A DNA stretch of 64,000 nt from an uncultured Actinomycetota bacterium (GCA_963839955.1 CAWIXB010000001.1:1154826-1218825), one strand, 5' to 3'; counted from the stretch's first letter, positions 20,448 to 23,966 are shown. Made by a program: numbers and translations. Notes: a model not told the origin generated them from the sequence alone.

Positions 20448-23400
20448 CTAGGGCAGCAACCGCGCCTCGATGGCGTTCGCGATCTCCGGTCGCTGGTGGT
20501 CGTCACTGGAGACGATCACCTTGTCGAAGTACTGGCCGACGCGCTGGGCAGTGAACTCCACCTGGAACGACTGCGGAGCGCGGGGCTGAACCGTGATCGG
20601 TAGCGGTGGTACGCCGATGAGGCCGAAGTGTCGGCCGTTCTCCAGCGTCAGCGCATGGACCGACACATCGGTCGACCCGAGGTTGTACAGGGTGACGGTG
20701 GCGGTGACCGGGGTCGCTTGCACGCCGTGGAAGTCGATGAAGTCGGGGAGCATTTCGATGCGTGATCCGGTGGCAGCCCCGGACATCTCCAGGGTGACGC
20801 GGGGTTGCCTGGGATCGTCGCTGACGAAGTCGTAGGCGGCCTGATCGGCTCGTCCGGGGACCGGGCCGGCGCTGTAGGTGACGTGCATCGTCTCGACGGA
20901 CCCGGCCGGGATGGTCATCGGCAGAGAGGGAGTCGGCTGGAAGAGGAACGAGCCCGCACCCATCGAGGCGAAGATCCCGCTGAGCGTCAGCGGCGCGTCA
21001 CCCTCGTTCGCGACCTCGAGTGAGAGCGACCGCTGTTGTCCGGGTGGCACGTTGCCGAAGTCAAGGTCCGGGGGCCGCAGCACGAGCACCGGGGTCACGC
21101 AATGACCAGCGAGTGTGATGCGATGGGTCTCGGTGTAGTTCGCCCCACCGCCGACGGTCAGGACCGCCGTCGCGTGGGCATCCACGCCGAGCGTGGGGGC
21201 GAAGCCCAGCATCACGCTCTGCTGCCGCCCTGGCTCCACGGCGGGCGGCATGACCGGGGGCACCAGGAACTGCGCGGGAGGGGCCTCGTCGGTCAGAGCG
21301 ATCTCGCTCACTGCCGCATCGGCGTCCCCGACGTTCTCGAGGGTGAGCTGTCCCCCGTCGACGCTCCCCAGCACCGTGTTCGGGAACGAGAGAGTCGTCG
21401 GGTTGACGGTGAACCTGCCGTGCGGACCGATCGGCGTTGCCGACGTGCGGACCGGCACCCACATCGCTGGCACCTTCTGGTCGTCGCTCTCGATGAGAAG
21501 ATGCGCCGAGATGGGTCCGGCCTGAGTCGGGTGGAACGTCAGGTTCACGGTCTCCCGGACTCCGGGGTAGACGACTACCGGCATCGGCGTGTTGACGGTG
21601 AAGGCCCCGGTGGCGTCGCCGGTGACCTCGACGTTGGTCACGGTGATCGGTTCCGGTCCTCGGTTGTACAGGTAGCACTTCGTCGAGCTGGTCGTCCCCT
21701 CTCGCTGCGGAGTGGGTTCCCAGGCGCGCAGCACCGTCAGCGCGTTGTCGGTGACGACCAGGTCGCCGACCCAGAACAGCTGACCCCCGACGGGGATCTG
21801 GTCCAGCCTGCCGTGCGGAACGAGGCGCACAGGGGATGAGGCGAGACCCAAGGCCGCGATGATCGCCGGTGTGAGGGAGCCGAAGCGATGGCTGCCGTCG
21901 CAGTACCAGACCGTGGGGGAGTCGGGCTCGCGCAGCAGCGTCTCGCCCGCGGGCGCCTTGGGCAGGGCCGCAACCGTGTCGTCGGGAAGCTCGACCTGGG
22001 TCGCCGAGGAGTAGCCGATGGCCCGGAGGTCGTCCGGGCCCCCCAGCTCGAAGGTCGCGCCCTTGAGCAGCTGGTGCAGCGCCGTGCCGCCGATCTCTCG
22101 CAGCACCCAGAAGTCCGGCAGGTACGTCGCCGGGGAGTCGGCCGCCGTCGTGTGCGAGAGCGATGCATAACGGGCCCATGGGTTCGGGATCACCACCGCT
22201 GGGTCGTCCGCGCTGTGCCGCTCCCAGTGCGCATGCCATTGGAACGCGTCGGGTGGTGTCGGAGCCGACAGCCCCTGACGGGCGCCGACGAGCGACTTCA
22301 GCACCCATTTCCGTAGTCGCAGCTCCTCGAGGAACGTGTGGCGCAGACCCGGGTCCGGGGGACTCGCGAACGCCGACTCCAGCTCCCAGCTGTCACGTCG
22401 CTGCATGGTGATCGCGTCGGACAGGGTGAAGGCTCGTGTTCGGTCGAACCCGGCCGTGGCCGTCACGACGTCGGCCGCCCTCAGGTAGCCGTAGTCCATC
22501 GATATCGAGATCAGGCCCGGCTCCACCTGGGTTGTCCCGTGCACATCGAAGGTGGGGGCGATGACGTGAATGGGGACGCCTTGGGCGTTGGCCGGCTCGA
22601 GGTCGTCGCGGACCACCTCCTTCAGGGTGATCTCGACCAGCGCCTGCATCAAAATGCTCAGGAAGCTCTCGCGGGCGAACGAGCGGTTGTTGGGCAGGTC
22701 CCGGCTGGACGCGAGAACCGCGTAGATCTCGGTGGCGCCCAGCTGGGCCGCGATCCCGATCGGGACGATCTCGCGAACACCACCGTCGACGTAGGTCTCC
22801 AGACCGAGTCGCACCGGCACGAACACGGCCGGCATGGTCGACGACGCCATCACGCCGTCCAGCACGCTGACGGTGGCGTCAACGGTCGGCCCGGGCGAGA
22901 CCAGGCACGCCTGGAGCGCGTCGAATGCGTGCTGGGTGCGTACGTGCAGACTGCGCAGCGCCCGGTCCAGCTGCTGCCTCCGTGCGGCCGTCGTGGCCGC
23001 TGCCCGCTCGGTGCGCACCCGCGAGATCTCGCCCTGCAACGCGCGAAAGGCCTCGGCCTGCGACGTGCACCGCGACATCTCGGCAGGCACGGCGGAGGCC
23101 ACCGGGGTCCGTCCGTCCCGTTCGACAAGACGCCCGTCGCCCGTCACGTAACGAAGCGCCCCGGACTCCAGGCTGGTGACGGCCATCATGAGGGGGGTGC
23201 CCTTGGCCACTTTGAGCAGGTCGAGGTTCACCGGATCGCGAAGCTTCATGTCCATCGGGTCCAGGACGAAGACCGATGGCGCATCCAGCCCGGCGGCCAG
23301 CGCCTCGATCGCCTGCCGTCCGATGGAAGGCCCGAGCAGCGACGCCAACGGGACCGCGGTCGGGACGACCAGCGCCAGGTCGATCCACGAGCGGCCCACG

Positions 23401-23735
23401 TCCATCTCCGGACCCGACTCGCCGTTGATCGCCGCCTTGAGGTGGGCGCCGAGGACCGGGATCTGCAGCAGCTGGGCAAGCCATGGTGCCGGCAGGTACA
23501 TGTCGTCATTGGTCTGCAGCCGATACCAGATCTGCTCGAGACCCTGGATGGCCTGCAGATGCTCCGCTGGCTGACCGATGCGCGCCTCGGCCAGCTTGAC
23601 GGCGTTGATGGAACCCACTGAGCAGCCGGTGAGGAGCTCCGGCCGGACGCCGAAGCGCCGGTAGAGGCACTTGACGGCGCCGACCTCGAAGGACCCGCGG
23701 GCACCTCCGCCGCTCAACGCCAGGGCTGTCTTCAT
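20448..23735 (-). CDS. Large patatin-like phospholipase fusion protein: N-terminal patatin domain plus about 330-aa linker plus four ASH/'choice-of-anchor D'-like beta-sandwich repeats
   Basis: The patatin motifs are intact: GGGARGSFEVG (oxyanion), GCSVGS (GxSxG nucleophile) and VDGGVREIVPIG (catalytic Asp). The C-terminal 450 aa comprise four ~100-aa repeats of an LDFG.V..G...L.L.N.G...L...I pattern. No signal peptide is evident. The maximal ORF extends to 23795 (TTG); ATG 23735 (MKTALALSGGG) is preferred and 23762 is an alternative. Confidence 0.8.
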   Translation of the reverse strand: MKTALALSGGGARGSFEVGAVKCLYRRFGVRPELLTGCSVGSINAVKLAEARIGQPAEHLQAIQGLEQIWYRLQTNDDMYLPAPWLAQLLQIPVLGAHLKAAINGESGPEMDVGRSWIDLALVVPTAVPLASLLGPSIGRQAIEALAAGLDAPSVFVLDPMDMKLRDPVNLDLLKVAKGTPLMMAVTSLESGALRYVTGDGRLVERDGRTPVASAVPAEMSRCTSQAEAFRALQGEISRVRTERAAATTAARRQQLDRALRSLHVRTQHAFDALQACLVSPGPTVDATVSVLDGVMASSTMPAVFVPVRLGLETYVDGGVREIVPIGIAAQLGATEIYAVLASSRDLPNNRSFARESFLSILMQALVEITLKEVVRDDLEPANAQGVPIHVIAPTFDVHGTTQVEPGLISISMDYGYLRAADVVTATAGFDRTRAFTLSDAITMQRRDSWELESAFASPPDPGLRHTFLEELRLRKWVLKSLVGARQGLSAPTPPDAFQWHAHWERHSADDPAVVIPNPWARYASLSHTTAADSPATYLPDFWVLREIGGTALHQLLKGATFELGGPDDLRAIGYSSATQVELPDDTVAALPKAPAGETLLREPDSPTVWYCDGSHRFGSLTPAIIAALGLASSPVRLVPHGRLDQIPVGGQLFWVGDLVVTDNALTVLRAWEPTPQREGTTSSTKCYLYNRGPEPITVTNVEVTGDATGAFTVNTPMPVVVYPGVRETVNLTFHPTQAGPISAHLLIESDDQKVPAMWVPVRTSATPIGPHGRFTVNPTTLSFPNTVLGSVDGGQLTLENVGDADAAVSEIALTDEAPPAQFLVPPVMPPAVEPGRQQSVMLGFAPTLGVDAHATAVLTVGGGANYTETHRITLAGHCVTPVLVLRPPDLDFGNVPPGQQRSLSLEVANEGDAPLTLSGIFASMGAGSFLFQPTPSLPMTIPAGSVETMHVTYSAGPVPGRADQAAYDFVSDDPRQPRVTLEMSGAATGSRIEMLPDFIDFHGVQATPVTATVTLYNLGSTDVSVHALTLENGRHFGLIGVPPLPITVQPRAPQSFQVEFTAQRVGQYFDKVIVSSDDHQRPEIANAIEARLLP

Positions 23736-23966
23736 TGTCACCGTCCGCTCGCCCTGGGGCATTTTCACGCTAGGACCGCCACCTGGGCGTGTCAACGACG
23801 GCCCGTCGCAGGGTCGGGGGCCTGCCCAAGGCCCTGACCTGCAAGGATTTCGGCTCGGACCGGGGCGGCTGGTAGCCTCGGTTACTGCCGTGCGTACGGC
23901 GTGAGCCTGTGTGATCTGCCCGTGACACAGACCGGGCGGAGCTCATCGAGACAAATCGGGAGAGAC

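Follow-up and report, generated by a model that had tools for sequence, protein, structure and literature searches.

What is a large minus-strand gene doing between ribF and rpsO, as the only gene on that strand in a co-directional block of core genes of about 30 kb? The question is raised by a stretch of 64,000 nucleotides (nt) from an uncultured soil bacterium of the Actinomycetota (GCA_963839955.1, CAWIXB010000001.1:1154826-1218825), hereafter the window, in which all positions are counted from the first letter. A model that read the window from the sequence alone (the sequence-only reading) had described the gene as an orphan, coding for a patatin-like phospholipase fused to four immunoglobulin (Ig)-like repeats. 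We find that the gene is real and that it encodes a multidomain protein which, judged by its sequence, is a stand-alone patatin-type phospholipase A, catalytically equipped and predicted to be active as an acyl hydrolase. The gene appears to have been acquired by replacement at a variable site, not by insertion into a tight junction, and comparison with related loci supports this firmly. The protein belongs to a family that is well-defined, rare, modular and uncharacterized; the family is not unique to the window genome and is not demonstrably a new system. As for its role, the account that we favor, tentatively and at a little less than an even chance, is that of a phospholipase gained by horizontal transfer and working on its own, which is released non-classically and then directed to a cell envelope by its C-terminal modules.

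The sequence is about 70% GC and long antisense open reading frames (ORFs) are frequent in it, so that coding status needed proof. The minus-strand ORF at 20448..23795 has 1115 codons when counted from a TTG at 23795, which gave the length of about 1.1 thousand residues first assigned to the protein. The likely start is the ATG at 23735 (MKTALALSGGGARG), for a protein of 1,095 residues. This is almost certainly the true start, since the homologues begin M-x-x-A-L-A-L-S-G-G-G-A-R-G, and an identical public gene call exists, also of 1,095 residues from the ATG at 23735; the earlier length and start are corrected to these values. The coding sequence of the patatin-like phospholipase is thus 20448..23735 (-), with the stop codon at 20448-20450 and a frame that stays open upstream to the TTG. 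The GC contents at the first, second and third codon positions are 0.69, 0.50 and 0.87, a pattern typical of window genes. This codon-position pattern, the strong domain matches described below, the homologues (the closest full-length one, P0002, is 64% identical) and the identical public call establish the ORF as a real gene and no high-GC shadow. A shadow of that kind lies nearby, as follows. An antisense ORF of 1023 codons at 17256-20327 (-) runs across truB, a kynureninase-like gene and ribF; it is no gene, and it cautions against arguments from ORF length in the window.

Residues 1-400 (22536..23735, -) form a patatin alpha/beta catalytic domain, as seen from the match to Pfam Patatin PF01734 (E 1.3e-21, 78.1 bits against a cut-off of 27.7, residues 5-329), from the motifs and from an AlphaFold2 model. 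This model of the full protein, made from 17 family sequences, has a mean predicted local distance difference test score (pLDDT) of 82. The catalytic motifs that had been listed from the sequence are all present: the oxyanion loop GGGxRG reads G9-G-G-A-R-G14, the nucleophile is Ser39 in G37-C-S39-V-G41 (codon 23619-23621, -), and the aspartate of the DGG motif is that of D317-G-G (codon 22785-22787, -). These motifs are kept in 15 of 16 full-length homologues. By profile search, the best solved patatin relative in the PDB is PlpD (5fqu, E 8e-14), followed by CapV-type patatins. Assignment to the RssA/YchK type was rejected, with a score for NF007623 of 34 bits against a cut-off of 272.

The catalytic domain carries a hydrophobic loop at residues ~105-138 (...SWIDLALVVPTAVPLASLLGPSI...; 23322..23423, -), which is the most hydrophobic stretch of the protein (top Kyte-Doolittle 19-residue window, 1.79) and is modeled with low confidence (pLDDT <50 at residues 105-135). 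Homologues also have hydrophobic inserts at the matching position, and we infer that the loop is an interfacial or membrane-contact element. A helix-turn-helix hairpin is inserted at residues 217-279 (22899..23087, -), with modeled helices at 217-246 and 250-279. No other segment of the protein diverges as much, identity to distant homologues being 13-28% here versus 36-57% for the N-terminal patatin core, and the hairpin is a possible lid or regulatory element.

The catalytic domain is followed by about 700 residues. The region between the patatin domain and the Ig array had been taken for a linker. In the AlphaFold2 models, however, residues 400-680 are folded, and a second model of this segment has a pLDDT of 86.6 and a predicted template modeling score of 0.83. 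A three-helix bundle, residues 406-502 (22230..22520, -), follows the patatin domain and accompanies it throughout the wider family. Next are two beta/alpha repeats of about 55 residues each, residues 540-660 (21756..22118, -), and a short connector then leads to the Ig array. The repeats are weakly EccB-like. When residues 330-680 were searched against 1.84 billion representatives, residues ~545-655 were found to recur as several stretches in other proteins, and a hidden Markov model of the 55-residue repeat gave up to five or six overlapping matches per protein with a period of ~55 residues. The carriers include M23 peptidases, among them P0177, which has an N-terminal hydrophobic signal/anchor and a dockerin. 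The sibling repeats of P0177 pass the threshold of the Pfam family T7SS_ESX1_EccB (PF05108; 28.6 bits versus 27, E 7.5e-7), and P0109 comes close. In all, 6 of 22 repeat instances match PF05108 weakly and no other family recurs among them. A Foldseek search with the model of residues 400-680 points the same way: its top six PDB matches are all EccB1 or EccB5, with weak E-values of 0.03-0.1. A PDB profile search with the 55-residue repeat returned only spurious leucine-rich repeat matches. A comparison has been drawn between the repeat of EccB1 and PlyCB, a phage protein that binds the cell wall, without functional proof (PMC4769845). Against a set of 5.8 billion proteins, the repeat profile found only short, mostly fragmentary repeat-only proteins.

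The C-terminal part, residues 680-1095 (20451..21698, -), consists of four Ig-like beta-sandwich domains of the ASH/HYDIN/choice-of-anchor-D type. The number and type of repeats given in the sequence-only reading are borne out by four separate stretches matching NCBIfam choice_anch_D (NF012200; 119 bits versus a cut-off of 45) and by four beta-sandwiches in the AlphaFold2 model. In Pfam, the matches are to HYDIN_VesB_CFA65-like_Ig (E 1e-26) and ASH (E 5.7e-20), and the best PDB matches to the modeled array are the ASH-type Ig arrays of HYDIN/CFAP proteins (E ~1e-23). The array ends without a C-terminal sorting signal. Simple hydropathy and pattern tests found no signal peptide, transmembrane segment, twin-arginine motif, lipobox or LPXTG motif in the protein, in agreement with the earlier claim that it lacks export and anchor signals. 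No signal motif of the type VII secretion system (T7SS), by which the sequence-only reading had supposed that the lipase might be secreted, was seen in the protein either: the only W-x-G is at residue 655, in the repeat region, and the only YxxxD/E is at residue 196, outside the hairpin.

The gene is no orphan. About 19 clusters (at 90% identity) have the full architecture and are 28-64% identical to the window protein, and the middle region is common to 576 representatives (50% clustering), 226 of them at E<1e-10. Proteins with the full architecture come mostly from soil metagenomes and metagenome-assembled genomes, plus Streptomyces sp. NPDC088360. Their annotations are generic, either 'patatin-like phospholipase family protein' or 'choice-of-anchor D domain-containing protein'. 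The literature searched, on patatin with choice-of-anchor D, nSTAND with patatin, and actinobacterial patatins, holds no description of the architecture. The earlier remark that no described family with this architecture was known finds no support in view of the generically annotated clusters. The catalytic domain and each type of module are known; the combination and the modular family appear undescribed in the literature searched.

The constant core of the family is the patatin domain with the helical bundle, and the C-terminal end varies. Among the ends are choice-of-anchor D Ig, NBR1-type Ig, B_lectin, AbfB, CBM_4_9, FG-GAP/VCBS, DUF5648, PF26607 and DUF346. Compared domain by domain, the hairpin insert and Ig2-4 diverge fastest, and the patatin core, the bundle and the repeats are the most conserved. 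Clear leaders are found in four members: P0023 (RRQLL), P0103 (SRRQFLG) and P0178 (SRRNVL) have twin-arginine (Tat) signals, and P0083 has one of Sec type. A cluster of 11 sequences represented by P0003 (L002 2528-5797; 44% identical to the window protein) has lost both the catalytic serine (GxSxG reads T-G-M-G) and the DGG aspartate while retaining all the other domains of the full architecture; P0003 may be a pseudo-enzyme with a non-catalytic role. A subfamily of ~900-950 residues (P0039, P0040, P0057, P0094, P0100 and others) has an N-terminal extension of ~430-500 residues ahead of the patatin domain, and its members with precomputed annotation show no Pfam domain except Patatin.

How the gene came to its place can be read from the ribF locus. 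ribF (FAD synthetase/riboflavin kinase) lies at 19506..20441 (+) and rpsO (ribosomal protein S15) at 23967..24236 (+), with a GTG start that is kept in relatives. The ribF stop at 20441 and the convergent patatin stop at 20448 are 6 bp apart, exactly as had been noted. The sequence-only reading had further taken ribF and rpsO to be contiguous in almost all actinobacteria. Of the 78 ribF loci that we fetched for comparison, only distant Solirubrobacterales-like ones have the two genes side by side, 15-126 bp apart, and no rpsO lies within 8 kb of ribF in Streptomyces, Nocardioides, Phycicoccus and others. The window itself is part of a 1.24-Mb contig (ENA ERZ25039516). The closest ribF in the species-representative genome set is 77% identical. 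In the ~22 nearest relatives (ribF 49-79% identical over the best tblastn segment; L005-L023, L040, L041 and L079), genes stand between ribF and rpsO, and the spacer is 1.2-2.7 kb. It contains, on the plus strand, a conserved hypothetical gene of ~385-398 residues with no Pfam hit, which we call geneA, and/or an aldo-keto reductase gene (for example, L012 8936-10102 and 10115-11134). The relatives show three states, namely geneA only, reductase only and both; neither gene is in the window. Since the closest relatives have geneA and/or the reductase in this gap, we conclude that the patatin gene probably arrived by replacement at a variable site. The ribF-rpsO spacer is a site of gene turnover in this lineage, with the patatin gene as its fourth state. 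The patatin gene was found at ribF in 0 of the 78 loci, which agrees with the other part of the earlier claim, a lineage-specific acquisition on the opposite strand.

The limits of the exchanged segment can be placed by alignment. The ribF stop is its left boundary. On the right, an alignment with five relatives shows no homology leftward of ~23843, the point at which it resumes, so that the exchanged segment extends from the ribF stop to a point between 23796 and 23842. The spacer upstream of the patatin start, 23736..23842, is unique to the window genome, holds the right boundary and presumably carries the promoter of the patatin gene. From 23843 to 23966 (+), about 125 nt show homology with the five relatives, and this strongly conserved leader/promoter region is that of rpsO, not part of the acquired segment. 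The divergent region had been given as 170 bp and shared; with the ATG start it is 231 bp (ATG 23735 to GTG 23967), of which ~125 bp belongs to the rpsO leader. In a consensus scan, neither a terminator between the ribF and patatin genes, which converge, nor a sigma-70-like site within the spacer 23736..23842 came up.

The homologues were also examined in their own contexts. Those with the full architecture are not syntenic with the window and mostly not with one another, and they often lie beside transposases or recombinases. The locus of P0002 (L001) has a resolvase, an HTH/DUF397 pair, Abi_C and WD40 fragments and a convergent STAND-like TPR protein of 959 residues. P0010 and P0012, which are Streptomyces-like (L003 and L084), have STAND NTPases, IS110/DDE transposases (L003) and Cas3 nearby. 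An IS91 transposase lies upstream in L090 and an IS3 transposase upstream in L094 and L095; P0003 (L002) lies among housekeeping genes. In the Streptomyces-like loci, a block is formed by a membrane protein (largely missing in L084), an AAA_16/nSTAND5-LuxR (LAL-type) regulator of ~915 residues and a Gly-rich protein of 261-277 residues (L003 5316-9846; L084 5378-9044; L086 3561-7966), with 76-87% identity between loci. A member of the patatin family adjoins the block in all three loci, each time a different paralogue on a different side. Regulatory coupling may exist, and the Streptomyces members might be controlled by this STAND-type LuxR regulator block. P0002 and P0014, divergent full-architecture homologues, are near a lipid-type cluster that encodes a fatty-acyl reductase, an alcohol dehydrogenase, a LarN-like protein (62% identical) and an acyltransferase (L001 14226-19821; L083 2987-9204). 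Short relatives of ~470-520 residues, with the patatin domain and bundle only, have a recurrent gltB-DAO-patatin-CorA context in many metagenome contigs (L124, L129, L132, L137, L138, L144, L146, L151, L152, L154, L159 and L167), with a gene of ~1,520-1,640 residues upstream. The context was established by Pfam on representative loci, gltB and a DAO-type oxidoreductase in L138 and the downstream CorA in L152, and these relatives look like a stable chromosomal subfamily. Among the loci examined, no partner gene is common to loci of different lineages.

Membership in a described defense system was tested and rejected. For CapV of the cyclic oligonucleotide-based antiphage signaling system (CBASS), NF041079 scores 25 bits versus a cut-off of 200 and covers residues 4-60 only. 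About 16 of the ~47 window genes were scanned with Pfam, and no CD-NTase, cyclase, STAND, secretion-system or ESX gene was found among them; the immediate neighbors are ribF and rpsO, so the earlier remark that CBASS partner genes are missing agrees with the scan. Comparison with the PADLOC models (PADLOC-DB v2), which had been put forward as a check, yielded a weak match of only ~50 N-terminal residues to generic phospholipase effector models (E 1.7e-6) and no system. Ten neighbors of the homologues matched generic TPR/HTH models only, and tblastn found no match in the window to the LAL and STAND-TPR proteins of the homologue loci. Carriage by phages or plasmids was likewise rejected: no relatives were found in IMG/VR viral contigs, INPHARED phages or PLSDB plasmids, the PLSDB matches being unrelated choice-of-anchor D proteins only.

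The account that we favor for the window protein would run as follows. The C-terminal modules would be a targeting device that binds a polymer of the cell envelope, peptidoglycan-like or glycan, and this binding would place the lipase on the membrane. The hydrophobic loop and helical elements would then engage the bilayer, and Ser39 and Asp317 would hydrolyze acyl esters. The site of action would be outside the cytoplasm of the producer, in the envelope of another organism or its own, and the protein would get there by a non-classical route, through cell lysis, ingestion by a predator, vesicles or an unrecognized secretion signal. Action outside the cytoplasm is suggested by the types of modules, both its own and the lectins, CBMs and FG-GAP domains swapped in elsewhere in the family, which are typical of extracytoplasmic proteins, together with the few Tat and Sec members. 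Targeting is favored because the repeat also occurs in a signal/anchor-bearing M23 peptidase and weakly resembles the periplasmic repeats of EccB. That the gene was acquired follows from its absence at all 78 related loci, the presence of geneA and/or the reductase in ~22 relatives and the lack of both in the window. If this account is true, the family would offer a simple system for studying what directs a lipase to a given envelope and by what way toxins without a leader exit actinomycete cells.

Several observations weigh against this account. Its hardest demand is export, which for the window protein is assumed. Among the 121 members with a recognizable GGGxRG, 84 start directly at the catalytic loop without a leader, as does the window protein, and since most members lack a leader or a recognizable alternative signal, release must be non-classical. 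The protein shows no T7SS-type motif or anchor, no secretion gene was found nearby among the window genes scanned, and there are no conserved disulfide pairs. The assignment of residues 540-660 to EccB-like repeats is weakly supported (Foldseek E 0.03-0.1), and the window's repeat region has no Pfam match at E-values up to 10; furthermore, some of the small repeat-only proteins, many of them fragments, have no leaders. No immunity gene is adjacent, which fits a target absent from the producer or a requirement for activation. The position of the Streptomyces members beside the STAND-type LuxR regulator block could point to an intracellular, regulated role. Finally, the third-position GC of the patatin gene (0.87) is below that of the flanking genes (0.93-0.95) but inside the range of window genes (0.82-0.98), so that composition gives no independent support for recent transfer.

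The lack of leaders in most members would be explained directly if the protein stayed in the cytoplasm. It would then be a self-contained sensor and effector, as the sequence-only reading had suggested, and would serve abortive infection or programmed death of the cell. A phage protein, or else a precursor or fragment of the cell wall, would be sensed by the Ig array and EccB-like repeats; this binding would relieve autoinhibition, in which the hairpin could serve as the lid, and the membrane of the cell itself would be destroyed by the patatin domain. Patatins are known suicide effectors, and CBASS lipase models give weak matches at the N-terminus. The gene occurs sporadically, as a mobile singleton, homologue neighborhoods hold STAND NTPase-TPR proteins, an Abi_C fragment, a resolvase, transposases and Cas3, and the rapid divergence of the hairpin and Ig2-4 is what would be expected of regulatory or recognition surfaces. 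We nevertheless consider this explanation unlikely, if well worth keeping in mind. No PADLOC model extends beyond the ~50 N-terminal residues and the neighbors match generic TPR/HTH models alone; the loci examined share no partner gene across lineages; the accessory domains are extracytoplasmic in type, and some members have Tat or Sec signals; relatives are missing from viral contigs and from phage and plasmid records; and the window gene sits within a core housekeeping block, with no defense island. If the explanation is correct, a new single-gene immune mechanism would be at hand.

An endogenous role is less probable still. Here the lipase would turn over membrane or storage lipids of its own cell, in envelope remodeling, and the C-terminal modules would tether it to an envelope structure or scaffold. 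The short relatives, as stable chromosomal genes in the gltB-DAO-patatin-CorA context, and the lipid-type cluster beside P0002 and P0014 speak for such a function. The full architecture, however, is rare and patchy (~19 clusters), is found at none of the 78 related ribF loci and is flanked by insertion sequences elsewhere; at the window locus the patatin gene displaced other genes and is not ancestral, and the genes of the lipid-type cluster are not in the window. There is, lastly, a very small chance that the gene is a passenger with little or no current function, or that its role is mainly non-catalytic, as a scaffold or adhesin-like protein. The P0003 cluster, which keeps the architecture without the catalytic Ser and Asp, and the absence of partner genes in the window would agree with this; the window copy, on the other hand, is full-length, has all catalytic residues and a normal coding GC, and is 64% identical to an equally intact homologue.

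The favored account, that of envelope targeting, may be set beside known systems. Patatin lipases recur as membrane-destroying effectors, in virulence (ExoU, VipD) and in immunity (CBASS CapV), with delivery or trigger supplied by other genes. In the window protein, a single polypeptide without a leader holds both the catalytic and the recognition modules, and the family as a whole exchanges its recognition end. ExoU, the effector of the Pseudomonas type III secretion system, is alike in being a leaderless patatin with a Ser-Asp dyad and with helical-bundle and C-terminal domains for membrane localization (structure of ExoU: PMC3498133). Neither protein has an adjacent immunity gene, and in both the enzyme is presumed to be latent in the producer. 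Unlike the case of ExoU, no type III system or chaperone was found here; no sequence similarity is detectable outside the generic patatin core, the PDB matches do not include ExoU, and ExoU itself has no Ig or EccB-like repeat modules. CapV shares the patatin fold, and the N-terminus of the window protein weakly matches NF041079 and the phospholipase effector models of PADLOC, but with 25 bits versus the 200-bit cut-off and no CD-NTase gene the likeness ends there, CapV itself being a protein of ~330-360 residues without extra domains. PlpD of Pseudomonas aeruginosa, a type Vd protein, is likewise a patatin lipase from a bacterium whose location is set by modules without catalytic function that are fused to it. 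Its parts include a signal peptide, a POTRA domain and, as translocator, a beta-barrel of 16 strands. The window protein, in contrast, has no POTRA or beta-barrel Pfam domains and no signal peptide, and its C-terminus is the four Ig sandwiches.

The non-catalytic modules have relatives of their own. With choice-of-anchor D/ASH surface proteins, the window protein shares the ASH-type Ig array fold and four domains well above the NF012200 cut-off. Such surface proteins typically have an N-terminal signal and a C-terminal sorting anchor, whereas the window protein has neither and has an enzyme domain. With M23 peptidases it shares the ~55-residue beta/alpha repeat, and it may share it with EccB, of the T7SS core, as judged by the sibling repeats that pass PF05108 and by the Foldseek matches. 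It differs from EccB in having neither the EccB transmembrane segment nor the central domain, and the similarity of the window copy is weak. A binding function of the repeat has not been demonstrated even for EccB (PMC4769845).

A more distant comparison is with the cytoplasmic chimerolectin toxins of fungi (MOA, CCTX2), which are leaderless, combine glycan- or surface-binding modules with a toxic enzyme, are stored in the cytoplasm and act on predators (PMC6238071, PMC13324453). The analogy with the window protein is conceptual only, as there is no homology, the enzyme class is another and the host is bacterial. It is tempting to regard the family as a bacterial counterpart of these toxins, in which soil actinomycetes would have a phospholipase of modular build, with exchangeable recognition modules, for use as a weapon or as an immune effector, but this is rather doubtful. 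The modules may in that case set the target, either the surface of a predator or competitor or, within the cell, a danger signal that comes from a phage or the cell wall.

The surroundings of the gene offer some minor observations. The rpsO leader at 23843-23966 has a hairpin-like core, GCCGT-N-ACGGC, with no Rfam match at E<=0.1, and may be the S15 autoregulatory leader of this lineage. Between rpsO and pnp, at 24286-24350 (+), lies an Actino-pnp RNA (RF01688, 55.9 bits, E 3e-10), an expected and ordinary cis-regulatory element. The kynureninase-like gene (Aminotran_5 and KYNU_C; 18210-19448, +) stands between truB and ribF; it is 70-77% identical in close relatives, which usually have further genes between truB and ribF, so that the truB-ribF link is interrupted in this lineage too. 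A DUF222 and HNH endonuclease gene at 6475-7968 (+), between ispG (GcpE) and proS, has the lowest third-position GC in the window (0.82) and is probably another mobile insertion in the core block.

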